64,000 nucleotides of DNA from Candidatus Thorarchaeota archaeon (GTDB lineage Archaea; Asgardarchaeota; Thorarchaeia; Thorarchaeales; Thorarchaeaceae): assembly GCA_048884965.1 (NCBI GenBank), contig JBHLQH010000007.1, positions 32,001 through 96,000 of the forward strand. The letters run 5' to 3'. The notes beneath the pieces were generated by a model. That model had not been told where the DNA came from. It was given only the letters and a program-made list of their open reading frames with translations, and ran no database searches. Position numbers and translations under genes: made by a program. This document shows, piece after piece, positions 34,514-51,163 of the stretch. Position 1 is the stretch's first letter, and each line of letters starts with the position of its first letter.

Positions 34514-35644
34514 ATGACCTCTTCAAAAAATGTGGAAGCACATTATTGGCAAGGAAACCAAGCCTGCGCAGAAGGTGCACTTGCAGCTGGATGCAGGTTT
34601 TTCGCTGGTTATCCAATTACTCCCGCATCTGAAATTGCTGAAATAATGTCGCAAGCACTTCCCAGAATTGGTGGAACTTATTTACAAATGGAAGATGAAA
34701 TTGCAGCTATATCAGCAATAATTGGTGCCTCATGGGGAGGCAAGCTCTCCATGACCGCAACATCAGGTCCTGGTTTTAGCTTAATGCAAGAAAACATTGG
34801 ATATGCAATTATGACTGAAACGCCTTGCGTAATTGTAGATGTTCAACGTGCAGGACCCAGTACAGGACAAGCAACAAAAGTAGCGCAAGGGGATTTCATG
34901 CAAGCAAAGTGGGGTACACATGGAGATCATGAAAGTGTTGTATTTGCACCCTATTCAGCTCAAGAAACTTACGAGCTTACTATCAAGGCCTTTGAAATCT
35001 CGGAGAGGTTAAGACATCCGGTCGTTATACTGTCCGATGAGATTGTTGCACATTCGAGAGAACGGGTGATTGTAGAAAGAACTCCAGATGCTCTTGTCAC
35101 TCGATCTTTTTCGAAAATTGGAGATCCTCCATATGGAGGCATAGACTCTGAAGGAAAGTCCTTAATGCCCAAATTCGGAGAAGGACACAACCTTTTGGTA
35201 ACAGGTTCTACCCATAATGAACAAGGGTTCAGAAAGACTTCGGACGCTACGACTCATGATAGTCTTATCAGAAGACTAAGTGCCAAAGTTCTCAATCAGA
35301 TTGATCTCCTTACAGATGTAGTGGTCAATGGACCTGATACTTCAGAATGGGGAGTGGTATCTTTTGGGAGTACTTCAAGATCTGTAGAGGAAGCCATGAT
35401 AGAGAGTAATACTTCTTTCAGATCTCTGAGATTACGAACTCTTTGGCCATTTCCTGATAAAGTCGTGAAAGATTTCTCCAAAACGGTTGATAAGTTACTT
35501 GTACCAGAGCTAAATCTGGGACAGCTTATCAATGAAGTATCTCGTGTTTCTTGCGATTCTGTTGAAGTTGTCCCATTGAATAAAATTGGTGGAGGATTGC
35601 TAATCGACCCTGAAGAGATAACTGGAATACTTGACAATAAATGA
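34514..35644 (+). CDS. 2-oxoacid:ferredoxin oxidoreductase alpha subunit (KorA-like)
   Basis: GNQACAEGA, AGYPITPASE, QMEDE, TATSGPG, QRAGPSTG, ELNLGQ. Confidence 0.93.
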   Translation: MTSSKNVEAHYWQGNQACAEGALAAGCRFFAGYPITPASEIAEIMSQALPRIGGTYLQMEDEIAAISAIIGASWGGKLSMTATSGPGFSLMQENIGYAIMTETPCVIVDVQRAGPSTGQATKVAQGDFMQAKWGTHGDHESVVFAPYSAQETYELTIKAFEISERLRHPVVILSDEIVAHSRERVIVERTPDALVTRSFSKIGDPPYGGIDSEGKSLMPKFGEGHNLLVTGSTHNEQGFRKTSDATTHDSLIRRLSAKVLNQIDLLTDVVVNGPDTSEWGVVSFGSTSRSVEEAMIESNTSFRSLRLRTLWPFPDKVVKDFSKTVDKLLVPELNLGQLINEVSRVSCDSVEVVPLNKIGGGLLIDPEEITGILDNK

Positions 35645-37926
35645 TGCGTTTCCAAGGCTGTCTGCACAATCATCTCACCATCAAGTTCGGTATTGATTGT
35701 TATCTGAAGTGATGTTCTAATCCAAATCATCAAACTGATTTCTATTCGATAGGATGTTGTATAGTTACCAGTTATGTCAATGTAAATCGCGTGCATTCCT
35801 GGTAGAAGCCATTCAGGAAGGATAATTGATTGAGGTAAACTAAGATTTGGAATATCCAAATCAGATACAAGGGAAGCGCTTACATTATCGAAAATCTGAA
35901 TATATGCAGAAGAAAGAGGTTGAAAAGTGTCATCATACACAGTTAACTCGAATAGGAATTGATTGCTGTAGAACGCTTGCGGATTATTGATTTCTGAGGT
36001 TATTGGAACAAGAATAGTAGTTTCGATTGCGAATGAGTGAACGAGTGTATAGTTCTCGTGTAGAATTTCTATCTCAATCGGATAGATTCCTTTTGGAACA
36101 CTGGAAGAAATATACAATGAGAGATTGTTCAATGTACCTACTAAAAGAGATGCTTGATCTAATATTTCCCCTGTGCTAAGCAGAAAATTGACAGTAATCA
36201 TATCGCTTATCCCTAGTTCAGACTCAATTGTAAGAGAAACATCCGAGTAGTTGCCTCGAACAAATACCCAACTAGAATTAGATGATGTGATCCAGAGTGG
36301 GTATTTAACATATACTTGGAATTGATCAGAAACCTCAGCAACAAAACATGTGTTTGGTTGTATCCTTATTGTGAGATTATTGTACCCTATAGGGGTGTCA
36401 TTTCCCACTGTCCATTCAATGAAAAGGAATCCAAATGAATCGGTACTGCCAATAGCTAATGTGTTGCCTTCTGAATCTTGAACTAAGACCGAGATGTTTG
36501 TGATTCGCAAGCCAGAAGGATCTTCAATTGAAATATTCAGGTATGATTGGTAGGCTCTTACAAATTCTGAGTAGTCATGAATTAGAATAGTTGGTTCAAA
36601 AACAATATCGATAGGAATGACTGAATTTGCATAAGAATAGAATGTAGAAGATTCAGCTGAGATTGAAACTGTTCCTGTTCCCCATTTGTCTTCTGGGATT
36701 TGAATACTACAGGATACCTGACCTGTCGAATTGGTCATTGCATAAAGAGAAAACTGCCATTCATTCAAGAAAATAGTGATGTTGATCGGGATGGAATCTA
36801 TCGGCTCTGCTTCTATCCAATCCTTAGCATTCACGTCAATTTTGAGCGAATAAGAGGGTAAAATTTGTTTCATACTTGCGGATATATTGAGTGTACGTGG
36901 TAGTACATCAACTACAAATGATTCCATGGCATCTTGGTATCCGTAATGTGAGGCTGTTACATTGACTTGATATTGTCCGGGAGTCGTTTGAAATGGAATG
37001 ATTCCTTCGTATTGTCCCACGATTGATTGTGCCAATATCCCATTACCGAAGGATGTCACCCAAGTTATATTACTGTCACTTATAGGTGCCATACTGCTAT
37101 CATTATGCTGAAATACTACATGAGCGTCTTCGTAAAACAAACCACTTGGCGTTTGACAGTAGAGATTCTCTACTGTATCGATTCTCGTTAATGTTGAGGG
37201 TTCTGAGTTGACCAGTAAGGGGAAGGTTTCTGAAAATGGAAGAAAAGCGTTGCTCCCGTTTCCACTAACCTGAATTGAATAGTCACCAGGTAGAAACGGG
37301 GTTTGATTCCAATGTTGAACTAAATTGCCACTAGGAGTTGTCGTGGTGATATTGGAAAAAACAAGATCATTTGTTGAGTTAAAAATCTCTATCAAAGAAG
37401 GCTCACTGGCTAGGGGAATGCTTTGATTGTACATGCTTGTGACTATAAAATCCAATGTTGCATTAGCATTCGTTTGAATAGAAAGTGGTCCGTTGGATTG
37501 GACCTGTAAATGGCCTCTAGTGATATTGACTTCAATTATCTCATTTATTCCCTGATAGTATTTATCGAAAATTTCGACATTCAACGATATTTGCGCAACA
37601 ACTGGGTCGGGATATGGAGAGGTATGTTCTGGGAGTATCGTATATTTCGAAGTAATAAGCCGAGTGTTTGGCGAAGGTGAGATAAAGAAACTGTCATCAT
37701 ATACTAACCCTTGATCCGTTGCAACCAAAAAGGAAACATGGCACCATCCTTCCTCGCTAAAATCTGCTACCAATTCTGTAACCATATTGATAGTTTCTCC
37801 AACCTCATATGTCATTTGATCCGTTTCGAAATATGAGAAATCAAAATACAATGCGGATACAGGTAGTGCGAAACCTAGGAATATTACGAATGACAATGTG
37901 ATAACTATTGATAGCCTTGGTTGCAT
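35296..37926 (-). CDS. Secreted/surface protein with multiple Ig-like beta repeats
   Basis: N-terminal signal peptide, repeated T..G / PG.Y.I.V beta motifs, many NxS/T sequons; last 349 nt overlap korA antisense. Confidence 0.8.
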   Translation of the reverse strand: MQPRLSIVITLSFVIFLGFALPVSALYFDFSYFETDQMTYEVGETINMVTELVADFSEEGWCHVSFLVATDQGLVYDDSFFISPSPNTRLITSKYTILPEHTSPYPDPVVAQISLNVEIFDKYYQGINEIIEVNITRGHLQVQSNGPLSIQTNANATLDFIVTSMYNQSIPLASEPSLIEIFNSTNDLVFSNITTTTPSGNLVQHWNQTPFLPGDYSIQVSGNGSNAFLPFSETFPLLVNSEPSTLTRIDTVENLYCQTPSGLFYEDAHVVFQHNDSSMAPISDSNITWVTSFGNGILAQSIVGQYEGIIPFQTTPGQYQVNVTASHYGYQDAMESFVVDVLPRTLNISASMKQILPSYSLKIDVNAKDWIEAEPIDSIPINITIFLNEWQFSLYAMTNSTGQVSCSIQIPEDKWGTGTVSISAESSTFYSYANSVIPIDIVFEPTILIHDYSEFVRAYQSYLNISIEDPSGLRITNISVLVQDSEGNTLAIGSTDSFGFLFIEWTVGNDTPIGYNNLTIRIQPNTCFVAEVSDQFQVYVKYPLWITSSNSSWVFVRGNYSDVSLTIESELGISDMITVNFLLSTGEILDQASLLVGTLNNLSLYISSSVPKGIYPIEIEILHENYTLVHSFAIETTILVPITSEINNPQAFYSNQFLFELTVYDDTFQPLSSAYIQIFDNVSASLVSDLDIPNLSLPQSIILPEWLLPGMHAIYIDITGNYTTSYRIEISLMIWIRTSLQITINTELDGEMIVQTALETHHLLSSIPVISSGSISNPPPILFNGTTSTESQETRDTSLISCPRFSSGTSNLSTVLEKSFTTLSGNGQRVRNLRDLKEVLLSIMASSTDLEVLPKDTTPHSEVSGPLTTTSVRRSI

Positions 37927-38033
37927 ATGCCCACCAGAAAGTTGTATTTACAGTGCCTAAAAAACACCCACGACTTTATCGACAGATTTAATTCAGCCGA
38001 CATTGGCACCTTGTAATAGGAGAAATTGAAAGA

Positions 38034-38402
38034 ATGCCTCTGCGTATCAAAGATGCTACGATAACTTCTATTGAAGATACTGAAACAAAGAAACTCAAGA
38101 TATTAAAAGCTGTATCAAAAGAAGAAGGAGTCACGCTCTCACTTGAAATGCCAGAAGCCCTTTGTGATCCCTTTCATGTAAAAGATACAATAGAGATTGT
38201 AATCGATTCTGAAGAGATTGTAAAAGGGGACAAAGCAAAGCTATACGCGGAAGGTACAGTTTTCAAAATGGATGATTCCTCCTCAAACCTATCAGTAGTT
38301 GCTGCTTTTGGAGGACTAAGATTGGTTTTGGAAATTGCATCACCAAAACCTGCGCAGAGAAAGATATTTGATTCACAGAAAGTTTTCTTGACTTTAGGCT
38401 AA
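38034..38402 (+). CDS. rpo8: RNA polymerase subunit Rpo8/RPB8
   Basis: OB-fold pattern, Y..G.VFK, FGGL.L signature; 122 aa. Confidence 0.78.
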   Translation: MPLRIKDATITSIEDTETKKLKILKAVSKEEGVTLSLEMPEALCDPFHVKDTIEIVIDSEEIVKGDKAKLYAEGTVFKMDDSSSNLSVVAAFGGLRLVLEIASPKPAQRKIFDSQKVFLTLG

Positions 38403-38564
38403 AGTTCGAAAATCAATGAATACTTTCGGCCATCTCACTATCTCACCATGCCCCATGTGACCCTATAGTAGACGTTATTGTTCATTGAGTGATACTGTGC
38501 AGTAGGTTTAGCATACATTTGGCTTCTGAAATCTAGTTAGGTGAAAATGTAATAGAATTACTGG

Positions 38565-39602
38565 GTGTGGTCATTGGTCGATGTATCAGTTCAACGAGAT
38601 TCATCTTCATTTTTGTGCCCGGAATGTTCGGGCAGTGTTGTAGCTAGCAGAGGATTTGTCGTCTGCTCAGAATGTGGAAATGTGGTAACAATAGAGTATG
38701 TTTCTCCAACTTATCAGATGGGCGAGGAGCATACTGAAGGTTCCCCAGAGGCAAGTGTTTACGGGTCCCTTGGAAATCGAATGCACATTGTTGATGGACT
38801 TGGCAGTTATATTGGCTTTCACAAGGATCGCTTCTTCAGAGATGCTAATGGACAGTCTCTTTCGGGTCCAATGCAGAAGAAGTTCAAGAGATTGAAAGGA
38901 GTATATAGTACAAGAGTGCGCATTGGAAAAGATGAAGCAAAGTATAGAGCATTGCGGACTCTTAACCATGTTTCGAAGCTGCTGATGCTAAATGAACAAG
39001 TAAGAGATCGGACGGCTTATCTCTATAAGAAAATTACAACCGAAACTCCAAACAAAGTGACAAATAATATACTCCTGATTGCCGTATGTCTTTTGATGGC
39101 AGTAAGGGAATTCAAGGAGGAAGCTCCAATAACTCTTGAGGAAATAGCTACTGTTTTTGAAAAGTGCGGACACCGTGTAAATGTGCGAGCTATTGTTAGA
39201 GAAGCACTTGAGCTAAGAGCCGTAACGGGTTATTCGCCTAAAATGAGAAAGCCTGAGGACTACGTGCCAAGGGTTCTTTCAATGCTAATGAATAGCTCAA
39301 AAGTCGTAAAGAAAGTCAAATCGCGAGGCTGGGCACCCCGAGATTATGAAAACGCACTCAGAAACAAAATCCTGTATGTTCTTGGTCTCATTCCTTCATC
39401 GAAACGGGGAGGTCGTAATCCTTTCATCTTTACTGTTTCTGCAGCATATGCAAGTGATCGCCTTCTGGCATCTGAACAGGGAAAGCGAGCGGTCTTGACA
39501 CAAAAACTTGCTTCGCAAGCAACAGAAGTTGCGGAATATAGTATTCGCGATCATTTTGGCATGATTAAAAATACGATTGAGCTGACAGTATCTACGCTAT
39601 GA
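38565..39602 (+). CDS. Divergent TFB/TFIIB-family transcription factor
   Basis: Zn ribbon CPEC...CSECG, GLGSYIG linker, two cyclin-like repeats (GRNP...LTQK.....VAEYSIRDH). Confidence 0.82.
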   Translation: MWSLVDVSVQRDSSSFLCPECSGSVVASRGFVVCSECGNVVTIEYVSPTYQMGEEHTEGSPEASVYGSLGNRMHIVDGLGSYIGFHKDRFFRDANGQSLSGPMQKKFKRLKGVYSTRVRIGKDEAKYRALRTLNHVSKLLMLNEQVRDRTAYLYKKITTETPNKVTNNILLIAVCLLMAVREFKEEAPITLEEIATVFEKCGHRVNVRAIVREALELRAVTGYSPKMRKPEDYVPRVLSMLMNSSKVVKKVKSRGWAPRDYENALRNKILYVLGLIPSSKRGGRNPFIFTVSAAYASDRLLASEQGKRAVLTQKLASQATEVAEYSIRDHFGMIKNTIELTVSTL

Positions 39603-39615
39603 ACAGGCAAATGAG

Positions 39616-41289
39616 TTGAAAGAATTGATTGGTGCCGAACCAAATGGAACAAGACCTCATGTGATAGTGTGCCCAGACAATGAATGCAATGATTGTAAGG
39701 GAAATTTGGTTCCAGAGAGATGTGGAAAAGTTCGATTGGAATCAGATAGAAAGATGATTATCATTGAGCCTATGAAGAAGATGATTCATCTTAGGCATGC
39801 TTTACTGGATTGTGATGGTATTGAGTCAAAGTCTAAGATGATTGAGTCTGTATTCATTGAAGAGTTTGACCAAGTAGAAAGCTGGAAAGATCTTGTTGAA
39901 GCTTATGCTATTGGTTCGTATCTTTCGCTCTATTTCAAAGGCAGAAGGGATAATTCTATACAACACATTTCCTTTCCACGTGTGCGAACCTCTCTCGAGT
40001 ATTCTTTAATCGAAGAGATGAACAATCAATACCTCAAATCCTTCAAGAATGGTAACTTGAGAAGAACAACCTTTCAAGGTAGATTGGAAACAAGTAGTAA
40101 CTGGATTGCTCAAGAAATCTCTAATTCGTTGCCAGAACTGAATTCGACTACAATACGTGTGATTGCTGATTTTGTTACCCACAAAAATACTCCAATTAGT
40201 GGAATGTTTCCATTGATTCTTGATGAATGTGTAGAAGAAATTTATCTGGATCGACCTGGAGAACAAGTATACTTCGATCATTCGAAATTTGGCAGAGTTC
40301 AAACCAATTTCCAGATGAATGATGATGAAGTTTTGAAGTTGACTACCTTGCTACGCGCTGAAAGTAACTTGCATCTAGATAGGAAAAATCCATCTTTGAA
40401 AACAGATTTGGTTCTTTATGATGTTCCACTTAGATTTTCAACTAGTATGCCCCCTCTATCACCTGATGGAATGAATTTAGAAATAAGAAGGGCGAGGGTG
40501 AAACCGTTTACGATTTTTGATTTAGTTCAAAACGGGACTTTAAGCTATAAGGCAGCTGCCCTTCTCATTCTTTCAATAAACTCAAGGCTAAATATTACAA
40601 TCACAGGAGAGCCGGGAACAGGAAAAACTACTCTTATGAATGCGTTGGACTTCACAACTCCAGAAATATGGAGAAAAATCTACATTGAAGATGTTCTTGA
40701 AAGTAGAATGATTGAAGGTAATCACCAAGTGAGATTTAGAGTGACTCCACTAGATGAGAATACAAGTATGTTGGATAAATCAACTGAGATTATCAAATGT
40801 CTTCATCGATCACCAGACTATCTGATTCTAGGGGAGATTCAAACTATTGAACACAGTCGTGCATTATTCCAGTCTATTGTTGCAGGACTTCGTTCAATAC
40901 AAACATGTCACAGTAGTTCACCCTCTAGTCTTGTCACCCGTTGGGTGGTTGAACATCATGTCAGCACATCAAGTCTTGCATTGATGGACCTCATAGTTTC
41001 ATTGAAAAAACCAAATCCTGGAGCTTCAGAAAGGTTCGTAGATAGAATCGCAGAGGTGTGCAGAAAAGAAGAATCAGGGCTAACAGAGTTCACAGGCTTG
41101 AATGTCATCTATGATTCTAATAATCCTGAAGAATTAGGAGAGCCAGCAACTAACGGAATGTTTCAATCTTTGGAATTCAAAGAAACAATCAATAGTATAG
41201 TTGGGAAACTCAAGTCATTTGAATACTCAAGTGAAAACAGTATGAATTGGATGGAACTAGATGATACTTCAATGTCTCCCTTCGTTTGA
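39616..41289 (+). CDS. Type II/IV secretion ATPase (TadA/CpaF/VirB11 family)
   Basis: EEIYLD, GEPGTGKTT, IEDVLE, LHRSPDYLILGEI, TCHS; Cys-rich N-terminus. Confidence 0.88.
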   Translation: MKELIGAEPNGTRPHVIVCPDNECNDCKGNLVPERCGKVRLESDRKMIIIEPMKKMIHLRHALLDCDGIESKSKMIESVFIEEFDQVESWKDLVEAYAIGSYLSLYFKGRRDNSIQHISFPRVRTSLEYSLIEEMNNQYLKSFKNGNLRRTTFQGRLETSSNWIAQEISNSLPELNSTTIRVIADFVTHKNTPISGMFPLILDECVEEIYLDRPGEQVYFDHSKFGRVQTNFQMNDDEVLKLTTLLRAESNLHLDRKNPSLKTDLVLYDVPLRFSTSMPPLSPDGMNLEIRRARVKPFTIFDLVQNGTLSYKAAALLILSINSRLNITITGEPGTGKTTLMNALDFTTPEIWRKIYIEDVLESRMIEGNHQVRFRVTPLDENTSMLDKSTEIIKCLHRSPDYLILGEIQTIEHSRALFQSIVAGLRSIQTCHSSSPSSLVTRWVVEHHVSTSSLALMDLIVSLKKPNPGASERFVDRIAEVCRKEESGLTEFTGLNVIYDSNNPEELGEPATNGMFQSLEFKETINSIVGKLKSFEYSSENSMNWMELDDTSMSPFV

Positions 41290-41377
41290 TGGTTCAAAGA
41301 TACCAGAAATCTTGAGAACGGATATCCTGTGGGGGCTTAAATACTCTGAATAGAATCTTAATACAAGGTGTGGTATA

Positions 41378-41581
41378 GTGACTGAATTCCCTTCGATTGT
41401 AAAAGATGAAAATGGAGGCCCACTTGTTGAAGAGAGCCTATTATTAGGACTTGCAGTGGTTACGATTTCCATTGTAATTGCAGTTATACTTCAAGCAACT
41501 GGGTGGGCTCAGGAAGTCATTGCAGGGCTGCTTCAGATTTTGGAAGATAGTTGGAGTGGATTGACAAATCTATTTCCATAG
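41378..41581 (+). CDS. Flp/type IV-like pilin
   Basis: Class III signal DENG|GPLVEE followed by a hydrophobic helix; 67 aa; follows the ATPase. Confidence 0.7.
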   Translation: MTEFPSIVKDENGGPLVEESLLLGLAVVTISIVIAVILQATGWAQEVIAGLLQILEDSWSGLTNLFP

Positions 41582-41807: not shown

Positions 41808-43805
41808 CTATTTTGTGACAGATTTCCGTTTGAGCACGGGAACAATTGGTATCCCAAGCGAGCTGCCTAATCCAAGAATTAGTGGGTACATTCCTACCCC
41901 TTCTGTCGAGTTCATATCTATCGGTGTGATAATGATATGAAAAATGCACGAGTATGACTCAATGCCATTTGTCGCTGGTATGTGACAAAAGAGAGAATGA
42001 AGCCCTGAGAGTTCAGGCAAAGGTAGTTCCATCTGTACTATTCCATCAACTCCTGCTATTGCGGAAAAGTTCTTGGAATTCCAAAGGAAATGTGTCAAAA
42101 TACCACCAAGATTTGTTCCATTAAGACCCTGAACCTGCAATCTTACATGAATTGACCCAAAAACATGATCAACATCATAACTAAAATGACTAATGTGAAC
42201 CGGAATTTTATTGCTAACCACAATGGAGAAGGATTGAGAAGCTGATAGCTCGAAAAAGTATTTGCTTCCGTCATAATATATATGAATTCTATAAATGCCT
42301 TCCATATCTGGAACCGTAATTTCGAAGGTGGCAACTCCAAATTGATTGGTTGTGAGTGATGAATTTCCAAACATAGTTGGCATCGAATAGGAAACCATCC
42401 TATCTGTCAAATTTCCAAACTGATTTGACAATTGCAGCTGGATGCGTACCACTTGATTTGGAGATGCGAATCCTAAAATGTTTGATGAGATGATTTGGAT
42501 TCTGGAAGCACTCCAAACTCCAACAATCAAAGTGGTATTCTTCCCAGAAGATATGTAGTCATTCTCAGCAATAATCTGAATTGTTCTATTCCCGATATCA
42601 CCAATAATTGGAAAAGATAGGGAAATCTCGGTTTCCCAGAAAGTTTCCACAAAGGTCGAATAGTTACTCTCCTTATCGATAACATACACAGTTGTATATG
42701 GTATCGGTCGTGAGAAAAGATCATAGAGAATAACGGTAACAGACATGGTGGTATTAATGGTCACCATTGTTGGAACTTGGGCTTCAAGAAACGCAACTGT
42801 TTCGATAACGAATTCTGATTCCAAACGCGTTTCTTGATATCTTTGGGTTCCAAAATACTGAATTTCGAGTGTATGTAATCCTATTGAATGAGATTCATTG
42901 AAGTGAATCTTGTATTCTGCAAAACCTGTAGAATTTGTGAATGTGGTATAGCAAAGGTTGCCATCTATCAAAAGGTCAAGTCGAACATTAGATAGAGCTC
43001 CTTCTTCTGAAACAGCTTTGACTGAGAAAGAAGCTGTTTGGTTAAGTGAGATTGTATCAATTATCTCAGTAGCTGGAGAGATGGAAGTTGAAAGTTTCTG
43101 GACTTCTATGATGAAGGAATTGCTGCTACCTCGATGAAAAAGAGTTACATTTCCTTCGTAGATGACTTCTATTGTGTGAGCACCAATACCAATAGAAGCA
43201 TTTTCGATGTTGACAACGATTGTTGCATAACCTGTGGAATTTGTAGTTGTACTAGTTAGTAATGATGAATCACAGAATATCTTGAGTGAAGCATTCTCAA
43301 TAGGATTCTGAATATCATCAGACAAACGAATTGAAAATACAAGATTGTCATCTGGAGCTAAATTGGTTTGTACAGGCAGTAGTTCCAGGTAACTAAATGA
43401 AGTTACAAGAAAGGAAATCCATTGACAGGAGGGAGCTAATGAAAGAGTTTCATTTCCTCTATATGTAACATTGACTAATGTATAGCCTAAAGGATGTGTT
43501 ATTGGGAATTCGTACTCAATGGAGGCAATTCCAAGTTCATTTGTAATTGCTGTTCCTATGAACACATCATATGTTTGATCGAAGAACTCTATTATCTGGT
43601 ACTGTACAGGTTCTCCAAAAGTCCCATTTGCGAGAAGTGTGGCTGCTATTTGAAAGGACTCTCCTCTGGATACTGTTATCTCAGCAGCAGCACCCACTGG
43701 ATATGAAAAGAATACAATGAAAAGACAAATCCCAAGCGCACCAAAAGCAATATGTTTGAATCTATGTTGCTTTGCGATTTGCGTCATTCTCGAATTTGGC
43801 AACAT
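41808..43805 (-). CDS. Membrane-anchored surface protein with Ig-like (Big-type) repeats
   Basis: Signal peptide, repeats of TNxxG.A...G.HTI...Y.G, C-terminal hydrophobic segment plus basic tail. Confidence 0.85.
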   Translation of the reverse strand: MLPNSRMTQIAKQHRFKHIAFGALGICLFIVFFSYPVGAAAEITVSRGESFQIAATLLANGTFGEPVQYQIIEFFDQTYDVFIGTAITNELGIASIEYEFPITHPLGYTLVNVTYRGNETLSLAPSCQWISFLVTSFSYLELLPVQTNLAPDDNLVFSIRLSDDIQNPIENASLKIFCDSSLLTSTTTNSTGYATIVVNIENASIGIGAHTIEVIYEGNVTLFHRGSSNSFIIEVQKLSTSISPATEIIDTISLNQTASFSVKAVSEEGALSNVRLDLLIDGNLCYTTFTNSTGFAEYKIHFNESHSIGLHTLEIQYFGTQRYQETRLESEFVIETVAFLEAQVPTMVTINTTMSVTVILYDLFSRPIPYTTVYVIDKESNYSTFVETFWETEISLSFPIIGDIGNRTIQIIAENDYISSGKNTTLIVGVWSASRIQIISSNILGFASPNQVVRIQLQLSNQFGNLTDRMVSYSMPTMFGNSSLTTNQFGVATFEITVPDMEGIYRIHIYYDGSKYFFELSASQSFSIVVSNKIPVHISHFSYDVDHVFGSIHVRLQVQGLNGTNLGGILTHFLWNSKNFSAIAGVDGIVQMELPLPELSGLHSLFCHIPATNGIESYSCIFHIIITPIDMNSTEGVGMYPLILGLGSSLGIPIVPVLKRKSVTK

Positions 43806-44006: not shown

Positions 44007-47000
44007 ATGGTAAAGGATGATTCAGGATTCAGATTCTCAGTACACCTGCACTCTAGAAACTTGACTAGAGTAATTTGGGTTATGACCCTTTTGCTTTGCA
44101 GTGCCTATATCTTGGGTGTGTATATTTTGCCTTTCTTTGGACTTGTCAGGTCTGAGATTATATCAAATAGATTCCTAATCGAACTTGTTGTTTGCTCGCT
44201 CCCGGTACTTTCGGGAGCTGTTCTGACCTACATACAAATGGATGAAGTGTCACCATCGGTCATAATGGATGATGAGTTCATGATCTTGTCTTTAGAGGGA
44301 AGGCATGTTGGAACTATTTGTCTAAAGATTACATCTGTTTCTGGATCTTTATTGTGGAATGATGAAGCAATACGATATAATACAGCACCCCTATTAGCGA
44401 TACGAGCAGGAATAAAAGAAGGCGTTGATTACGCGTTTCAATATGGTGTTCAATCTGGAGAACCTTTCCTTCATGTATTCATATCAATGTCATCTACCAA
44501 TGTGACCTCTATGAAGGAGATACTGAAGAGAGAAGCAACAAGAGCTGAGGCAATACTACTATCTTCTTTAGAAAATGTCAGTGTTCGTCTATTACAAAAA
44601 GATGAACTTGTGTCAAGTGTCAATCTATCGGATATAATCCAAGTTAGAGAAGATGGAAAGATAGCTATAGATAAGGATAGCACAGGTACTCTTTTGATTA
44701 TCAATGGCATCCCAAAAGTCACACCAACTGAGACTTCCTCTCAGGTTGGGACGTTCATATCAACATCACTGCGACAAGGCTATTCTCTGTCCCTAACTTG
44801 TGTTTTTTCCAAAACCAATCCGGGAAAAGAAAAAAGAAGGTTGGAACGCAAATGGAGAAGGATAAAATCGAAAGAGAAACGAAATGAAGACTCCCTTTCT
44901 GATCAAGCAATGAAAAGGACATTGCTTAGCGAGTTTGAAGAGATAAACACGAATTCTGCTTGGTTTGAGTCATCGGTATATGTAGTCATCAATCATGATA
45001 CTCCAGTCGAGGGAGTAAAAGGCTTGATACACTCAATTTGGAGTGGAGATGACAGTCTATCGATAAAAGAAACTCAACTAAGTCAGTTAGTTAAATACCG
45101 ACTTGTCATGAAAAGACATCTGAAGGGACAAAGAATACATGTGAATAGACTAGTTGCATATGTTAATACCCCAGTTCAGCACTTGCCAGTTGTTAGTGCA
45201 ATGGGAATACCGGAATTTCAAATTCCATCCACCGATATTGTTGAAAATGAGTTGGAGATTGGTTGGGCAGTATACGGAAATCGGCGTTTAAGCAAAGTGG
45301 GATTGAAACCCGAGTGGCTAAGAGAGCATATGGCGGTCTTAGGAGCTACTGGTACCGGAAAAACAACCTTGGTAAAGAAATTGATGTCAGAAATCACAAT
45401 AAAGACTGCTGTCCCTTGGTGGATATTTGATGTCAAGGGATCGGAGTACTCTGATTTGTCCAAATTCGATGATATTGTTGTTCTACGACCCGGTCTTGAC
45501 CCTACATTTGTTATAGATTTAATCGAAAGGAGGAATTTCGACAATAACCGAGCCCACTCTACATTTTCATTGCTGCGAGAATTGATTCAAGAGAACAGCA
45601 CTTCTGAATTATCTCCTGCAATGGAGAAGCTTCTTCGAGAAGCCGTTCTCTCGCTGGCGAATGAAAATGATATGGGATATGGAGCTAGTGCACTTGTTGA
45701 TAGAATTCAAGAGATTTCAGGAAATGACCGAGTCAGTCAGATGACAAGAGATGCACTGCTGAACCGACTTGAAATCCTGACTAGGGAACCTCTTGGATCC
45801 ATTTTAGCTGGAGGTGCCGATTCGTTCAGGATTTCAGAGCTGCTTAGTTCAAGGGTGGTATTCGATTTGAGGTATGTTTCGCAAATCGGAGGGATGGATG
45901 CCGCTCGACTTCTTTACAACCTTGTAGCAAAACGAATCTTCGATGCCTCTATGCGAAGAGGAATCTCCTCTGGCTTGCATCATCTTGTCGTGTTAGAAGA
46001 AGCCAGCAATCTTGTGCCCGAAAGCTACACTAGGCACTCTGCTGCTGATGTTACGACTGGTGAATCTATGGTCATGCTCCAACGTGCTACTGGTCAGGGT
46101 GTTATTGTGATTTCAACTAGACCAAATATATCTTCGAATATTCTAGCCAATACCTCAACAAAAGCCACCTTCAGACTTCCGTATGATAGCACCGTTGGAG
46201 GTAGATTCATGTCTGTTGATGCAAACCAGGAGCAGTACCTGCGTACTATGCAGGTAGGAAGAGCTTTGATTTTATTACCCAATGTCAATACATTTGAAAT
46301 CGAAACGGAACCCTTCGATATATCTGAATATTTACCATCAAGAACATCTTCACATACTAAAGGAAGTGCTGAAGAAACAGAAATAAAAGATGCATCAGTA
46401 GATAGCAAAAGTGAGATATCAACTGAAGAAATCAAAGACCCTTCATCGAGTCATCTAAGTCCAGTTTTTGATAGAATCGGTGAACTAGCAAATCACATTA
46501 TAGCTCTATTAGCATCTAGAGAGATTACTACCCATGAAGATATTCGTGAATTTTTGCTAAGCCTTGATGCCAGATTGACTGATGATGATGTGAATGATAT
46601 TCTCAGAGATTTGGTTTCGTTATCGTCCATCCAGAGAGAAGCCATTCCTCTTGTTGCTGGAGGTTTTATCTACTCACCTGTAGGTAAAGGCTTGCAGGCA
46701 GTTAAGAGAGTGATTATTGATTATCTTGTAGATAGATTGGAGAACGTGGACCAAATGAATGGCGAGAATGAATTAGGTCCCGATTTATTTGTCAATGAAA
46801 CTGCGATTATTATCATTCCGGAGATGCTTAAGGCATCCACTTTTGAAGGGATTATCGAGAGGATAAGACATCAGATGAACGTCCTGCGAAATGGAGTATC
46901 GAATCTTATTGTGATTGTAAGAGGGAGTGTTGCTGCAGCAAAACTGCGTGAAATAGTCGATGGATCTGAAGAGTTTGATGCAGTTTCTGTAGTATCAGCC

Positions 47001-47723
47001 TTTCCAAGTTCATTGTCTAAACTTGTTGAAGGATTGGCAAAATATAGAGCGAAAACAGAAAAGCTTGGATTATCAGCTGGAGACCCTGAAGCTGTTCAAG
47101 CTAGCTTGCTCGAGGCTGTTCATGATATTGGATCAGCTTCTAGCAGAGCTGTTCAAATGCGACTATGGTTTGGTTTGATTCAAGACTTTGTAGACCTGTC
47201 GAAAGGGTGTGTTTCATGGGAATCCATCCTTGAGTTTATTGATACAACCGCTATCCAATCAAAGAAAGGGAGAAGCGCACCTCTTAATGTAGAAGAAGGA
47301 AAAAGAGCACTTACAGAATTGTTGGCTGATGAGATGTTGGTTGCTGTACGAATTGGCTCTAAAGATAGTCTTGTGGAATTGGAAGAGGGATTGTGGATAG
47401 TAAACGCAATAGTTCTTGATGACTTGAAGGCCAAGGCCATTAGTCAACTGAAAAGCGAACTGGAAAAACGGTACGATGTTGTGTTTCAAGGTCATGGATA
47501 CTACGATATTTGTGCTGATAAGAGATCTTATGTTGTTTTTCCAACTCAACAAGAACTGAGCACATTGATTCGATTACATAGTGACGTTGCATGTAGGAAC
47601 TGCGAATCGAATGAAGTAATCTGTATTCTAACGGCTGCCGAATACTTAGAGGATTCGATAGTTACACCTTCAAATCTGATAATGCGAACGATGGATGAAG
47701 GACTTACATCAGTTTTTATCTAA
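44007..47723 (+). CDS. Large membrane-anchored HerA/FtsK/VirB4-superfamily ATPase (DUF87-like)
   Basis: Two N-terminal TM segments, HMAVLGATGTGKT, IFDVKGSEY, VVLEEA, ILANTST; long C-terminal extension. Confidence 0.82.
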   Translation: MVKDDSGFRFSVHLHSRNLTRVIWVMTLLLCSAYILGVYILPFFGLVRSEIISNRFLIELVVCSLPVLSGAVLTYIQMDEVSPSVIMDDEFMILSLEGRHVGTICLKITSVSGSLLWNDEAIRYNTAPLLAIRAGIKEGVDYAFQYGVQSGEPFLHVFISMSSTNVTSMKEILKREATRAEAILLSSLENVSVRLLQKDELVSSVNLSDIIQVREDGKIAIDKDSTGTLLIINGIPKVTPTETSSQVGTFISTSLRQGYSLSLTCVFSKTNPGKEKRRLERKWRRIKSKEKRNEDSLSDQAMKRTLLSEFEEINTNSAWFESSVYVVINHDTPVEGVKGLIHSIWSGDDSLSIKETQLSQLVKYRLVMKRHLKGQRIHVNRLVAYVNTPVQHLPVVSAMGIPEFQIPSTDIVENELEIGWAVYGNRRLSKVGLKPEWLREHMAVLGATGTGKTTLVKKLMSEITIKTAVPWWIFDVKGSEYSDLSKFDDIVVLRPGLDPTFVIDLIERRNFDNNRAHSTFSLLRELIQENSTSELSPAMEKLLREAVLSLANENDMGYGASALVDRIQEISGNDRVSQMTRDALLNRLEILTREPLGSILAGGADSFRISELLSSRVVFDLRYVSQIGGMDAARLLYNLVAKRIFDASMRRGISSGLHHLVVLEEASNLVPESYTRHSAADVTTGESMVMLQRATGQGVIVISTRPNISSNILANTSTKATFRLPYDSTVGGRFMSVDANQEQYLRTMQVGRALILLPNVNTFEIETEPFDISEYLPSRTSSHTKGSAEETEIKDASVDSKSEISTEEIKDPSSSHLSPVFDRIGELANHIIALLASREITTHEDIREFLLSLDARLTDDDVNDILRDLVSLSSIQREAIPLVAGGFIYSPVGKGLQAVKRVIIDYLVDRLENVDQMNGENELGPDLFVNETAIIIIPEMLKASTFEGIIERIRHQMNVLRNGVSNLIVIVRGSVAAAKLREIVDGSEEFDAVSVVSAFPSSLSKLVEGLAKYRAKTEKLGLSAGDPEAVQASLLEAVHDIGSASSRAVQMRLWFGLIQDFVDLSKGCVSWESILEFIDTTAIQSKKGRSAPLNVEEGKRALTELLADEMLVAVRIGSKDSLVELEEGLWIVNAIVLDDLKAKAISQLKSELEKRYDVVFQGHGYYDICADKRSYVVFPTQQELSTLIRLHSDVACRNCESNEVICILTAAEYLEDSIVTPSNLIMRTMDEGLTSVFI

Positions 47724-48565
47724 GGAGCAATCTTCGTACAGAGTACTGATTCTCCTTTTAGTAAATCCTCTAGTCGACCAGGAATATTCAGATTGAATAT
47801 TGTTGTTTCAGTTCCTAAACCCGACAAGGCTAGTAGGTCAATAACCTTCTTTGCCATTCCACCTGTGACATCAGTTGCACTTGATGGTCCTACTGCTTTG
47901 AGAACCGATTCCTTGTTTAGTTGGTTAATCACTGGAATTACTCTGGCGTGTGGATTGATACTTGGATTGCTATCCAGTACTCCATCTACATCGGTCCCTA
48001 TTAGAATCTCCTTGATTTTCAATTCTTTTGCTAGATAAGCCATAATCGTATCGCCACTTAGAATTGCTGCACCAAAATGACTGTCGAAACATACGTCACC
48101 ATGTGTTATTACATTGTGACCTGAATCTATCGTTCTTTGTATTGATTCAAGGGAAAACGATGCGATTTGCTTATTCTCCAGAAACGAAATGGAAAAGGGT
48201 GAGATAACGACTGATGACAGACCCTCCTGATTGAAGAGGGTTTCAATACCAAATGCTAATTCATTCATGTTATGTCTGATTTTTGGAATACCCGCAAGTA
48301 GTCTATTGATTGGAGTATCTGATTCTCCATATCCATAGCTGTATGCTGCTTGGTGACCATGGGCGCCACCTCCAAGAACAATGATCAATGGAGAAGTAGC
48401 GATTTGTAGCTCTTTTGCAATTCTGTTTACTGTATCATTATTTATCCGAGGAGGCGTTTCATGCTTATTGGTAATGACCGACCCTCCGAGTTTGAGAAGA
48501 ATTATATCTTTCACATCGCACACCCTTCTTACTTGTGAATTCGGTTTACTTATGGAAGTTATCAT
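47720..48565 (-). CDS. ipk: Isopentenyl phosphate kinase
   Basis: LKLGGSVITNK, GGGAHGH, HGD, ILSGD, DVTGGM..K. Confidence 0.9.
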   Translation of the reverse strand: MITSISKPNSQVRRVCDVKDIILLKLGGSVITNKHETPPRINNDTVNRIAKELQIATSPLIIVLGGGAHGHQAAYSYGYGESDTPINRLLAGIPKIRHNMNELAFGIETLFNQEGLSSVVISPFSISFLENKQIASFSLESIQRTIDSGHNVITHGDVCFDSHFGAAILSGDTIMAYLAKELKIKEILIGTDVDGVLDSNPSINPHARVIPVINQLNKESVLKAVGPSSATDVTGGMAKKVIDLLALSGLGTETTIFNLNIPGRLEDLLKGESVLCTKIAP

Positions 48566-48655
48566 GATATGAAAATGTCACACATAAGACAAGCTTTTTA
48601 TCGGAACCACATTCCGTTGAGATGAACACCTGCCAAACCGGAGCGGGATATCGAT

Positions 48656-48967
48656 ATGACTCAAAGAGCAAGAATCAGACTATCAAGCACTAGTACCGAA
48701 CATCTAGATGGAGTCTGTAATCAAATTAGGCGAATCACTCGAAAGACAGGTGTGAGAATGTCGGGACCGATTCCGCTTCCTACAAGAAGAATGGTAATTC
48801 CTACTCGTAAAACTCCTTGTGGACAAGGATCAGAGTCTTGGGATAAATGGGAGATGAGGGTCCATAAGCGCCTCATTGATATCGATGCGGATGAAAGAGC
48901 TATTAGACAGATAATGCGAGTCAGAATTCCTGATTCGGTCTATATCGAGATTGAGCTAACTGGATAA
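48656..48967 (+). CDS. rps10: 30S ribosomal protein S10 (uS10)
   Basis: [33 protein letters not shown]. Confidence 0.98.
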
Positions 48968-49042
48968 TCCGCAACAAAAACTCTTTCTTGATAGAGTTCT
49001 TCTGTAATTCCAATGTATCAGTGATTATGAGGAGCAATCTCT

Positions 49043-50866
49043 ATGTGTGGAATTATTGGCGTTGTGCAGGAAAGAGGAGAGGTCGCTTCCTTTATTCATC
49101 AAGCACTGAAACGTTTGGAATATAGAGGGTATGATTCTGTAGGAATCACAACAATCAAATCAGATCAGCTATTCACAAAGAAAGACAAAGGAAAAATCGA
49201 TGAAGTTCATCAAATGCTAAATTTGGATGATCTTCCAGGGAGTATTGGAATTGGTCATACTCGCTGGGCAACTCATGGTATCCCTTCAATGTATAACTCT
49301 CATCCTCATTTCGACTGCAAAAACGAAATTGCGGTTGTTCACAATGGAGTAATCGATAATTTCCTTGAATTACGTGAAATTCTTACTAAAAAAGGTCATA
49401 GCTTCGAGTCTGACACAGATACTGAAATACTACCACACCTTATTGAGGATTTCATGAATGAAGGGCAATCATTGAAAGATGCTCTGAAACAAGCTGCAAC
49501 ACTGATTGAAGGCACTTATGCAGTTGTAGCCATGAGCACACGCGAACCAGACAAGATGGTTGTTACCCGCGATGGAAACCCCTTAGTTATCGGCAGACAG
49601 GGAAATACAAGCTATGTTTCATCAGATATTCCTGCTTTCTTGCCAGTCACCAACAATATGATTCTTCTTCTTGATGGAGAGATTGCAACTCTCACTGTTG
49701 ATGGGATTTCAATAGAACGGCTTTCAGATGGAGAACAGGTCAATCGCGAAACAATCAAAATTAGTTGGACTGCAGACCAAGCTCAAAAGGCTGGATTTCC
49801 TCATTTCATGTTGAAGGAGATACATGAGCAACCAGAGGCTATCAGAAATACACTCAGACTACGACCGGAGATTTTACTTGAGGCTGCGAATATTCTTTCT
49901 GAATCGAATAATATCTTCTTCTTGGCAATGGGTACTTCTGGTCATGCTGCAATGGCAGGAAGACACATGTTCGCATCACTTGGGGGTGTACTTCCATCTT
50001 TTGAGTTAGCCAGTGATTTTCAGGATAGTGTCTATGATGTTATTTCAGAGGGGGATCTTGTTCTCACAATTACGCAATCTGGCGAAACGACTGATACTAT
50101 AGTTGCTGCAAAATATGCAAAGAAAAGAGGCGCAAAAATTCTAGCTATTACAAATGTTGTTGGAAGCTCAATAACTAGATTGGCTGATCATACAGTTATT
50201 ACTCAAGCGGGTCCTGAAATAGGAGTAGCAGCTACTAAGACATTTATGGTCCAGCTTACTTCATTGGCGCAAATAGCACTAGCTCTTGGGGATGTAAGGT
50301 CATTCAAGGATCCTGAAATCTTGGCTGAAAAGAGAAATGCACTTGAAGGTATACCAAGTATTGTTTCGAAGGTGATTGCCACAGAGGAGGAGTATGCAAG
50401 GCAAATTGCAGGAGTATACCATGCAAGTCCAAGTATGTTGTTTCTGGGTAGAGGGATTTCAATGGCTACAGCATATGAGGGTGCTCTAAAGCTGAAAGAA
50501 ATTGCATACAATCATGCAGAAGGGTATTCCGCTGGCGAATCGAAACATGGTCCAATCGCTCTGGTACAGGAAAATTATCCTGTAGTCTTTGTTGCACCAA
50601 GTGATGATACTCGAGCAAGGTTGATTGGGAATATCATGGAAATGAAAGCCAGAGGAGCATCAATCATCTCTGTTCTTGAGGAAAGTGACCAAGAAATACG
50701 ATCTCTTTCAAATCGGATATTCTCTATTCCAGATGGTGTTGAACCGGAATTCTCGGTCATGCCCTATATTGTACCATTGCAGCTGTTTAGTTATTATATG
50801 GCAACAAGGAAAGGATATGATCCCGACAAGCCTCGTAATCTTGCCAAGTCAGTTACAGTTCTTTGA
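49043..50866 (+). CDS. glmS: Glutamine-fructose-6-phosphate transaminase
   Basis: MCGIIG, LEYRGYDS, GHTRWATHG, QSGET, PRNLAKSVTV. Confidence 0.98.
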   Translation: MCGIIGVVQERGEVASFIHQALKRLEYRGYDSVGITTIKSDQLFTKKDKGKIDEVHQMLNLDDLPGSIGIGHTRWATHGIPSMYNSHPHFDCKNEIAVVHNGVIDNFLELREILTKKGHSFESDTDTEILPHLIEDFMNEGQSLKDALKQAATLIEGTYAVVAMSTREPDKMVVTRDGNPLVIGRQGNTSYVSSDIPAFLPVTNNMILLLDGEIATLTVDGISIERLSDGEQVNRETIKISWTADQAQKAGFPHFMLKEIHEQPEAIRNTLRLRPEILLEAANILSESNNIFFLAMGTSGHAAMAGRHMFASLGGVLPSFELASDFQDSVYDVISEGDLVLTITQSGETTDTIVAAKYAKKRGAKILAITNVVGSSITRLADHTVITQAGPEIGVAATKTFMVQLTSLAQIALALGDVRSFKDPEILAEKRNALEGIPSIVSKVIATEEEYARQIAGVYHASPSMLFLGRGISMATAYEGALKLKEIAYNHAEGYSAGESKHGPIALVQENYPVVFVAPSDDTRARLIGNIMEMKARGASIISVLEESDQEIRSLSNRIFSIPDGVEPEFSVMPYIVPLQLFSYYMATRKGYDPDKPRNLAKSVTVL

Positions 50867-50902
50867 GGGGCTTAAATTGGACATTAACTAACTAGTCAAT
50901 GT

Positions 50903-51163
50903 GTGAAACCAATGTTGCCATATATGCTTCAATCGCCATTGACGGATTTTGCTAACCTAATAGCTGGATACTTTGCGGAAATTTGGGAGTTCCTCGTCTT
51001 CATCGCAAGAATCTCTGCTGTAATAGTTGTATTAGTGGGAGCTATCCTATGGTTTACGGAAGTGAACTCCAAAAGAGGTAAGGGTCTCGTTTTCAGTGGA
51101 ATAATGCTAGCAATCGTAGTACAGTATTTTGTAATGTATCCACCAACGTTCATTCTCAGTTGA
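50903..51163 (+). CDS. Small two-TM protein, TrbC/VirB2 pilin-like pattern
   Basis: Amphipathic helix, TM (AVIVVLVGAILWF), basic loop KRGK, second TM. Confidence 0.55.
   Translation: MKPMLPYMLQSPLTDFANLIAGYFAEIWEFLVFIARISAVIVVLVGAILWFTEVNSKRGKGLVFSGIMLAIVVQYFVMYPPTFILS

Follow-up and report, generated by a model that had tools for sequence, protein, structure and literature searches.

The stretch analysed here, hereafter the window, comprises 64,000 nucleotides of a Candidatus Thorarchaeota archaeon (GenBank assembly GCA_048884965.1, contig JBHLQH010000007.1, positions 32,001 to 96,000), of which about 16 kb encode membrane ATPases, surface proteins and a paralog of the archaeal transcription factor TFB. 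These genes probably constitute two separate resident modules: module A, a minimal Tad/Flp-like type IV filament system composed of the TFB paralog, a TadA/CpaF/FlaI-type secretion ATPase and a 67-aa prepilin, and module B, a stand-alone membrane machine composed of a 1238-aa ATPase, an Ig-like glycoprotein and, probably, an 86-aa protein. This reading rests on homology, predicted folds, gene linkage and co-variation, from which we infer leader cleavage, fibre formation, a regulatory role of the TFB paralog and DNA transport. An earlier note, made from the sequence of the window, had proposed one DNA-exchange system analogous to the Ups pili and Ced importer of Sulfolobales; all the open reading frames (ORFs) it listed were recovered in place by the ORF map and the Pfam/NCBIfam domain scans on which the present inventory was based. 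Components were cross-tabulated over about 30 genomes, and Asgard families, genomes and fetched loci are designated by f-, G- and L-numbers, respectively, f1 being Thorarchaeota and G000 the genome of the window.

That an Flp-like pilus module with its own TFB is a conserved unit is well supported by its linkage outside Thorarchaeota, assessed in 18 loci from about 12 other Asgard families. The TFB paralog was placed 0–4 kb from the ATPase gene in 16 of these loci (TFB hidden Markov model [HMM], 1e-75 to 1e-115), in co-directional, divergent or convergent layouts, and T2SSF-like membrane proteins followed the ATPase in 15. The usual platform pair consisted of a protein of ~280 aa with 4–5 transmembrane (TM) helices and another of ~235 aa with 2–3, and one platform gene (L069) reached the Pfam T2SSF family unaided (3.2e-7). 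A 60–70-aa prepilin homologue with the motif K[DN]K[AG]/[SG]PL[VI]EEG[LI]LIGL, in which the slash marks the predicted cleavage site, was detected by HMM in 10 of the 18 loci. The proposed association of the TFB paralog with a TadA-type ATPase and an Flp-like pilin was thus borne out across some 12 families and several gene orders. The ATPase itself matched 270 of 301 sampled Asgard genomes, although some of the weaker matches may be paralogs.

Within Thorarchaeota, the whole 20-kb neighbourhood was mostly collinear in 20 loci from 16 genera, including the genes for ribosomal protein S10, GlmS and isopentenyl-phosphate kinase (IPK). Since these housekeeping genes were just as syntenic, gene order in Thorarchaeota is uninformative on function, and synteny within the family was discarded as evidence. 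Rearranged genomes presented different outcomes: in G011, the pilin, ATPase, TFB and RpoG genes were kept together and the pair of 665-aa Ig-like and HerA-like (1238-aa ATPase) genes was kept together separately, G013 retained the TFB–ATPase pair, and G005 split TFB from the ATPase.

Other arrangements of module A were also recorded. A ParA/MinD-type ATPase gene, recalling bacterial TadZ/CpaE, lay between the TFB paralog and the Tad-type ATPase in a genome of 1.4 Mb (L069:12223-12888, G087). One complete Asgard genome (G123) harboured two full TFB–ATPase–platform copies (L064 in G123:C7 and L065 in G123:C3), with an sm86-like gene, resembling that of the 86-aa protein, near each of them and a 976-aa Ig-like protein encoded inside the ATPase operon of one copy.

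In the window, the TFB paralog and the ATPase, both assigned to their families by Pfam/NCBIfam, were separated by exactly 13 nt from stop to start, as the earlier note had counted, and a further 88 nt separated the ATPase from the prepilin ORF. The ATPase preserved Walker A (GEPGTGKTT, residues 331–339) and Walker B (DYLILGEIQ, 401–409) motifs, presented an N-terminal Cys cluster (CPDNECNDC, aa 19–27) followed by a further Cys, and had a degenerate His box that contains only one His (GLRSIQTCHS). Its nearest solved structures were Archaeoglobus fulgidus GspE2 (2OAP, 1.2e-25), FlaI (2.6e-17) and CpaF (1.1e-14). One main match to this ATPase was found per genome in 80 of the 87 genomes of the class. 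The genome of the window encoded one other T2SSE-type ATPase, adjoining a tRNA-splicing endonuclease gene and with no platform or pilin gene beside it.

The prepilin, the only Flp-like gene in this genome, is composed of a variable leader, an invariant G/GPLVEESLLLGL segment and one hydrophobic helix. The alignment of these small proteins (A2) revealed a variable leader, often basic or acidic, followed by the invariant core [GA]/[SG]PL[VI]EE[GS][LI]L[LIV]G[LI] and a hydrophobic helix, so that the family preserves the Flp layout, with a G or A just before the predicted cleavage site (–1), E in position +5 and G in position +7. In bacteria, the processing site of Flp pilins follows the pattern G/XXXXEY. 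Among Thorarchaeota, the leader varied freely and the remainder, from GGPLVEE onward, was nearly invariant, which is the pattern expected if the leader is removed. Moreover, GGGG-n-TTAAATA boxes preceded the prepilin gene by a similar distance in most orthologous loci of Thorarchaeota, and this BRE/TATA-like element (TFB-recognition element and TATA box) may serve as its promoter.

The TFB paralog of module A is, according to its predicted structure, a complete TFIIB-type protein with a Zn ribbon and two cyclin folds. It scored 57.9 bits against the NCBIfam TFB model, far under the cut-off of 384, and was therefore considered a divergent paralog, the sixth TFB of a genome that has five canonical two-cyclin TFBs elsewhere. 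An alignment of 23 sequences from ~12 families (A4) revealed an invariant CxxC...CxxCG ribbon, a strongly conserved SLGNRxHIVDGLGSYIG segment at the place of the TFB B-reader and linker, and the further conserved motifs RGGRNPFIF and VAEYSIRDH. The AlphaFold2 (AF2) model (mean predicted local distance difference test, pLDDT, 77) comprised a Zn ribbon and a helical core, its top Foldseek matches were TFIIB in RNA polymerase II preinitiation complexes (1.6e-9), and its core was superposed on that of Pyrococcus woesei TFB (1AIS_B) with a TMt of 0.77 and a root-mean-square deviation of 3.6 Å. TFB3 is a truncated factor that acts alongside TFB1. The modelled ribbon with two cyclin folds therefore speaks against a TFB3-like truncation, and the analogy with TFB3 drawn before did not hold for the architecture of the factor.

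When two motifs of the TFB paralog were scanned over 185,579 species genomes, 275 relatives were recovered, and the best 80 of these 275 were all from Asgard archaea (Thor-, Jord-, Frey- and other Promethearchaeota) or from untyped archaeal metagenome-assembled genomes, with the sole exception of a 2-kb contig labelled Thermoplasmatota. No Thermoproteales relative was present in the best 120 profile matches, all from Thorarchaeota, nor among at least 150 clusters from a search of representatives (down to 1e-39), in which every named cluster was Asgard; the ESM Atlas gave a mere lead to one Thermoproteota TFIIB cluster. The gene of the RNA polymerase subunit Rpo8 (RpoG), 162 nt upstream of the TFB paralog in the window, adjoined the paralog in 18 of the 20 Thorarchaeota loci sampled and also in family f3 (L069, Pfam 3.8e-8), and this adjacency was not observed in f16 or f19. 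Outside Thorarchaeota, Pfam RpbG found Rpo8 in 5 of 17 genomes, adjacent to the paralog in one (f3) and not in the other four. The element CTGAAATCTAGTTAGG upstream of the TFB paralog was strongly conserved in most Thorarchaeota and bears no resemblance to the GGGG-TTAAATA boxes that precede the pilin gene; it may represent an atypical promoter or the site of a regulator.

The absence of a TadB/C platform and of a prepilin peptidase from the window, remarked on previously, stands for the window itself, but Pfam located both elsewhere in the genome. The sole T2SSF match was a gene cut by a contig end (G000:C71:8961-10127, 1.2e-8). In better-assembled Thorarchaeota, this gene coded for 507–509 aa and was located beside an Nre gene with no ATPase adjoining. 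The N-terminal half of the protein aligned with the 280-aa platform gene of other families (down to 1e-35) and the C-terminal half with the 235-aa gene (down to 1e-16), and this collinearity with both split genes indicates that Thorarchaeota fused and relocated the platform rather than losing it. The single A24 peptidase of the genome was found at G000:C35:13721-14029 (Pfam 8.4e-10; FlaK 1.2e-6). As to the surroundings of the fused gene, the archaeal Nre gene (Pfam Nre_N, 3e-91) was placed one or two genes upstream (L096:10577-11836, L097:12229-13491), and a conserved protein of 217–229 aa with seven predicted TM helices always followed the fused gene in Thorarchaeota (G000:C71:8215-8904, L096:7573-8226, L097:8463-9122). 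This protein matched no Pfam or NCBIfam family and may be a pilus component that has escaped recognition.

The components of module A were also absent together. Six genomes had no match to the ATPase, namely three of f9 (93–98% complete), two of f12 (81–83%) and G001 of f2 (96%), and none of them had an orthologue of the TFB paralog: five gave nothing at 1e-25 and the best match in G001 reached 5.7e-23, against 1e-120 or better for orthologues in the positive-control genomes, where canonical TFBs scored ~1e-21. No T2SSF match was found in the five f9 and f12 genomes, and within f9 the A24 peptidase was present in seven of eight module-positive genomes and in none of the three module-negative ones. 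The pattern, in a small sample of related genomes, is thus that the platform, the TFB paralog and, in f9, the peptidase are missing along with the ATPase.

The large ATPase of module B comprises two N-terminal TM helices, a VirB4-like N-domain, a motor domain (Walker A, 446–454) and a C-terminal extension of ~440 aa. Its best named sequence relative was CedD (1.3e-12 here and 1e-27 in the G001 orthologue, both far under the cut-off); in NCBIfam bits, it scored 47 against CedD, whose cut-off is 600, and 24 against CedB, whose cut-off is 700. In a profile search against sequences of the Protein Data Bank (PDB), only HerA-type P-loop regions were recovered. The AF2 model of residues 80–1238 (pLDDT 78) ranked first in Foldseek with full-length TrwK/VirB4 of plasmid R388 (5e-20, ~800 columns including the N-terminal domain), followed by HerA (1e-13) and by the VirB4 C-domain and TrwB (~1e-11). 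The motor domain was equally near DndH, VirB4, TrwB and HerA (Z 27–29) and hence undiscriminating, so that only the match of the N-domain specifically indicates VirB4. With its two TM helices, a DUF87 domain and a predicted fold that aligns lengthwise with full-length VirB4, the protein agrees with its initial description as a TM-anchored VirB4/HerA-like ATPase. Two other labels were rejected: that of a HerA–NurA helicase of double-strand break repair, as there was no HAS-barrel match and the neighbours were IPK and the Ig-like protein rather than NurA, Mre11 or Rad50, and that of FtsK, whose motors reached Z 17–18 against 27–29 for VirB4, TrwB and HerA.

The 665-aa Ig-like gene is divergent from the large ATPase, and the same pair was found in G001 (L099, HMM 8e-56), a genome without module A, which is why the glycoprotein was assigned to module B and not to the pilus. 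In other lineages, orthologues of the large ATPase were surrounded by housekeeping genes (PGK, UbiA, aconitase, ornithine carbamoyltransferase and GHMP kinase), with no accessory genes of type IV secretion systems (T4SS) beside them. No VirB6/CedA-like polytopic gene was found next to the large ATPase or the gene of the 86-aa protein in the lineages inspected, no genome-wide search having been made, which agrees with what had been seen in the window; the multi-TM neighbours scanned were UbiA, GT87 and PlsY-type enzymes. In three lineages, the large ATPase adjoined isoprenoid or lipid genes, coding for IPK in Thorarchaeota (window 47720-48565), a GHMP mevalonate-type kinase in G001 and a UbiA prenyltransferase in Frey/Jordarchaeia (outside the window, L099:5554-6510 and L102:7478-8488). 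PGK followed the large ATPase in two families, and its proximity to lipid genes may be due to chance.

The 86-aa protein, separated from the large ATPase by three housekeeping genes, is a two-TM hairpin with the basic loop NSKRGKG (alignment A1), and its family was recovered with profile A1 in f1, f2, f12, f15, f16 and f27. As it matched neither a Pfam family nor a solved pilin in the PDB-chain profile search, the term VirB2-like used for it earlier refers here to topology and loop motif and not to sequence. In f15, the hairpin gene was immediately upstream of the VirB4-like ATPase on the same strand, with a gap of ~60 nt (L100, HMM 4e-18), and in f16 it abutted the TFB paralog. Of the two copies in f27, one headed a HerA–Mre11–Rad50 operon and the other faced an Exo5-type nuclease. 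In Thorarchaeota and f2 the gene followed glmS, and in f12, where the genome gave no HerA-like match, its neighbours coded for Ig-like proteins. Although heterogeneous, these surroundings tend to favour a role in DNA transactions and a link with the large ATPase, and the hairpin protein is probably a member of module B. The f27 arrangement was seen in one Asgard genus, in which the HerA directly downstream of the hairpin gene is canonical (HAS barrel and DUF87) and is followed by Mre11 and Rad50 (L197:2-5241 in G268; L198:1923-8288 in G304), and the nuclease gene facing the second copy is of the Exo5/PD-(D/E)XK type (L193, L194).

In the proposed mechanism, the 67-aa prepilin would insert into the membrane and the single A24 (FlaK/PibD-type) peptidase would cut its variable leader after the conserved G/A. 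A hexameric TadA/CpaF-type ATPase would then drive a TadB/TadC-type platform, supplied in Thorarchaeota by one fused gene on another contig, and the mature pilin of ~53 aa would be lifted into a thin fibre. The TFIIB-family paralog would be a dedicated partner, most likely acting as an alternative initiation factor to activate the promoters of the module. Module B would unite the TM-anchored VirB4/CedD-like ATPase, the divergent anchored Ig-like glycoprotein and probably the 86-aa hairpin, possibly as a Ced/Ted-like nucleic-acid translocator, and it would lie beside module A in Thorarchaeota through a shared neighbourhood rather than an obligate partnership.

The principal alternative concerning the relationship of both modules is that they form one system for cell contact and DNA exchange, the Asgard counterpart of Ups pili and the Ced importer, in which the TFB would co-induce the pilus, the VirB4-like ATPase, the hairpin and Ig-like adhesins. 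The control of Ups and Ced by TFB3, which activates both sets of genes in Sulfolobales after UV (PMC6101591), offers a precedent. All the components occur within ~16–30 kb in f1, f16 and f27, the hairpin gene precedes the VirB4-like ATPase in f15 and adjoins DNA-processing genes in f27, the large ATPase aligns with full-length VirB4 and has CedD as its best named relative, and the published Ted loci also have Rad50 and HerA-like genes (PMC9905601). However, the HerA-like gene, present in 15 of the 18 non-Thorarchaeota genomes, was located within 10 kb of the module A ATPase in just two of the families, f27 and f16 (in the latter for one of its two copies), so that A is near B in three families only, f1 included; in f5, f7, f9, f13, f15 and f19 the two were 54–740 kb apart or on separate contigs. 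Moreover, no HerA-like gene was found in the three genomes of f3, f12 and f18 that carry module A, and three of the six genomes without module A (G001, G189 and G116) had one. Each module thus occurs without the other, the unlinked phyletic pattern that the earlier note had itself named as contrary to its proposal. The lack of a VirB6/CedA-like gene adjoining the ATPase in any lineage examined, the CedB and CedD scores far under the family cut-offs and the architecture of the TFB, which is not TFB3-like, point in the same direction, as does the inspection by eye of 20 orthologous upstream regions, in which the TFB, pilin and HerA-like genes each had their own conserved box (with no genome-wide baseline) and no special motif common to the three was seen. 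Therefore, an interpretation of A and B as two modules is preferable to that of one DNA-exchange machine, and a single Ups/Ced-like system is weakly supported and, in our estimate, unlikely. A more elaborate version, in which an ancient ordered Asgard Flp/Tad filament locus with a built-in TFIIB-family factor cooperates in some lineages with a third, undescribed T4SS-derived importer (VirB4-like plus VirB2-like), so that DNA would pass between cells of the nearest prokaryotic kin of eukaryotes, is considered decidedly improbable; the factor might there be held, for example, by the Cys-rich N-domain of the motor and released according to the assembly state, coupling surface contact to transcription. 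It is also conceivable that the arrangement has no functional meaning and reflects mere family-wide synteny, since the 20-kb neighbourhood is collinear in most of the 16 Thorarchaeota genera with its housekeeping genes included. The linkage of TFB paralog, ATPase, platform and pilin outlasts rearrangement, differing gene orders and the divergence of ~12 families, and the components of module A are also jointly absent, so this explanation, very unlikely as a whole, is largely refuted for module A and may still hold for the juxtaposition of A and B.

Regarding module A itself, the published account of a related Thermoproteales locus, called subclade 4D, suggests an alternative without any pilus, in which a repurposed pair of type IV pilus (T4P)-like ATPase and membrane protein would serve a signalling or transcription-related pathway together with the TFIIB paralog and Rpo8. 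The same gene combination exists in Pyrobaculum and Thermoproteus, for which a transcription-related role was proposed (PMC4858521; PMC13705601), Rpo8 abuts the TFB paralog in Thorarchaeota and f3, the paralog co-varies with the ATPase as a structural component would, and the His box of the ATPase is degenerate, with one His. Nevertheless, in many families the ATPase is found together with an Flp-like prepilin whose class-III-type site is conserved, the membrane partners can be recognised as T2SSF platform proteins, the A24 peptidase co-varies with the module in f9 and Rpo8 is not adjacent in f16 and f19, and the pilus-free explanation is accordingly regarded as improbable. Several points nonetheless count against the preferred reading of a filament system and a separate machine. 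The prepilin has no Pfam or PDB-chain family, Flp_Fap included, so that the designation Flp-like, adopted from the start, is sustained by a class-III-type motif and topology kept across families, by size and by gene context, but not by a pilin family match. Neither the platform gene nor that of the peptidase is linked to the ATPase in Thorarchaeota, and their partnership is therefore deduced from orthology and from co-variation in a small, related sample; more generally, the filament, pilin processing and expression are read here from genes. The recurrent adjacency of Rpo8 (in Thorarchaeota, f3 and, according to PMC4858521, Thermoproteales) and the tight coupling of the TFB paralog fit a transcription-related role equally well. 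In addition, A, B, Orc1/Cdc6 and sm86-like genes lie within ~20–30 kb of one another in the three distant families f1, f16 and f27, and in f16 the HerA-like gene is adjoined by a second Flp-like gene and the TFB paralog by the hairpin gene, so some functional tie between A and B may exist.

Among known systems, the closest published case is subclade 4D of Thermoproteales, here compared by its published description: an ATPase with a small N-terminal Cys-rich domain, a 4–5-TM protein, a TFIIB homologue and Rpb8 in one operon (Makarova, Koonin & Albers 2016; PMC4858521). In Pyrobaculum/Thermoproteus, the ATPase belongs to arCOG05558 and the TFIIB to arCOG05559, and no pilin was found; TFIIB homologues were, moreover, the commonest regulators in archaeal T4P loci (PMC4858521). 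A census of October 2026 (PLoS Genet) restates the 4D account (PMC13705601). Both 4D and module A are chromosomal and share a Cys-rich N-terminal ATPase (CPDNECNDC in module A), a TFIIB-family gene in the same operon, an adjacent Rpb8/Rpo8 gene and a membrane partner, although none with multiple TM helices lies inside the Thorarchaeota locus itself. Module A differs in its Flp-like prepilin, in partners that are clear T2SSF proteins, split in most Asgard families and fused and relocated in Thorarchaeota, and in the two predicted cyclin folds of its factor, against one described for that of 4D.

The comparison with bacterial Tad/Flp systems (type IVc: CpaF/TadA, TadB/TadC, Flp pilin and TadV/CpaA peptidase) rests on family matches and gene layout rather than phylogeny. 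The ATPase of module A falls in the same family (CpaF, 1.1e-14), the platform is likewise encoded by two genes in most Asgard families, and the pilin is tiny, with G closing the leader and E and G occupying positions +5 and +7 (SPLIEEG here). Only in f3 is there also a ParA/MinD-type gene inside the locus, like bacterial TadZ. In contrast, the Asgard locus has no secretin or outer-membrane parts, has a TFIIB-type factor built in, and its pilin has no Flp_Fap match.

Module B resembles the Ced (CedA/A1/A2/B/D) and Ted (TedA/B/C/D) systems in its membrane-anchored ATPase of the HerA/FtsK superfamily, with CedD as best named sequence match and a predicted fold that aligns with full-length VirB4, and in its probable hairpin protein, a short two-TM product that looks unprocessed and has a basic loop, like CedA1, TedC and VirB2; all are chromosomal and domesticated. 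The hairpin–HerA–Mre11–Rad50 order of f27 likewise recalls the Rad50 and HerA-like genes of Ted loci (PMC9905601). The differences lie in scores far under the cut-offs, in the lack of a VirB6/CedA-like gene nearby, in the ~440-aa C-terminal extension and in a hairpin with no detectable sequence similarity to solved pilins. CedD is a VirD4-like HerA/FtsK ATPase required for DNA import in Sulfolobus (PMC11823120), and the Ced and Ted papers considered here place these systems only in Thermoproteota (Sulfolobales, A. pernix and Thermoproteales), the 2023 paper making no mention of Asgard archaea (PMC9905601, PMC11823120). As regards TFB3, both factors are TFB-family paralogs associated with type IV pilus genes, but the Asgard paralog is predicted to be full-length, has its own conserved linker motif and is physically within the pilus locus.

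No published description of an Asgard TFB–ATPase–platform–Flp locus was found in the literature search. The system had been presented as possibly undescribed, which may hold for this Asgard locus and less so for the combination of TFIIB, secretion ATPase, membrane protein and Rpb8, known in Thermoproteales since 2016 (PMC4858521). The present analysis adds the ordered locus in most Asgard families sampled, the fused and relocated platform of Thorarchaeota, the concerted absence of module A components (ATPase, TFB paralog and platform, with the peptidase in f9), the hairpin–ATPase adjacency in f15 and the predicted VirB4-like architecture of the large ATPase. According to the 2026 census, an ordered type IV filament locus is rare in Asgard archaea and the product of the scattered genes was left open (PMC13705601), whereas a compact ordered locus of TFB paralog, ATPase, two platform genes and tiny pilin was present in most families sampled here, of which the Thorarchaeota arrangement would be a dispersed derivative. 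Module A is consequently a specific candidate for producing the thin filaments on the surface of Asgard cells, and it suggests that the supposedly pilin-less 4D systems might contain overlooked mini-pilins. It also lends itself to the study of how a paralog of a general transcription factor can be hard-wired to membrane machinery. Although the evidence is thin, the VirB4/CedD-like ATPase and the hairpin are candidates for nucleic-acid transport outside Thermoproteota.

Features of the 16-kb region, with positions given in the window
Feature	Position	Strand	Basis or remark
876-aa exported protein, sequon-rich	35296-37926	-	N-terminal signal/TM only; no Pfam match
RpoG/Rpo8, RNA polymerase subunit, 122 aa	38034-38402	+	Pfam RpbG 4.5e-5
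CTGAAATCTAGTTAGG element	38526-38541		~25 nt upstream of the GTG start of the TFB paralog
Divergent TFIIB/TFB-family paralog, 345 aa	38565-39602	+	Pfam TFIIB 1.3e-5, Zn_Ribbon_TF 7e-4; NCBIfam TFB 8.8e-16
TadA/CpaF/FlaI-type secretion ATPase, 557 aa	39616-41289	+	T2SSE 1.7e-15; NCBIfam TadA 4.5e-24, FlaI 3.8e-22
BRE/TATA-like putative promoter element GGGGGCTTAAATA	41331-41343	+	~40 nt upstream of the prepilin gene
Flp-like prepilin, 67 aa, one TM	41378-41581	+	Motif, size, gene context
665-aa Ig-like surface glycoprotein	41808-43805	-	N-terminal signal/TM, C-terminal TM anchor; Big_3_5 7e-11
1238-aa membrane ATPase	44007-47723	+	Two N-terminal TM helices; DUF87/HerA 5.6e-17; CedD 1.3e-12; CedB 1.5e-5
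Isopentenyl-phosphate kinase, ribosomal protein S10, GlmS	47720-50866	mixed	Pfam/NCBIfam
86-aa two-TM hairpin protein	50903-51163	+	ORF directly after glmS; probably module B

The region as a whole is resident in the chromosome and not mobile. Four housekeeping genes (RpoG/Rpo8, IPK, S10 and GlmS) lie within the 16 kb, and genes for Orc1/Cdc6 and replication factor C (RFC) subunits are located just upstream, which identifies the stretch as housekeeping DNA in an origin-type neighbourhood without marks of mobile elements. The domain scans found no integrase-like or relaxase-like domain among the ORFs scanned, in agreement with the notion of a domesticated locus put forward before.

Of the two large proteins formerly described as Ig-repeat surface proteins, the 665-aa one deserves the name, by its Big_3_5 match, whereas that of 876 aa had no Pfam match and its Ig repeats were unsupported by sequence. 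The 876-aa gene is syntenic within Thorarchaeota, and elsewhere its HMM matches Ig-like proteins weakly; its product is probably a surface glycoprotein and was assigned to neither module. The 876-aa ORF (– strand) overlaps tail to tail by 349 nt (35296-35644) with the gene of pyruvate:ferredoxin oxidoreductase (POR; 34481-35644, +), an overlap that is kept in Thorarchaeota, and spurious matches to this protein in other families arise from the antisense frame of the POR gene. The final ~115 residues of the 876-aa protein may thus not be real coding sequence, or the two genes may have an unusually long convergent overlap.

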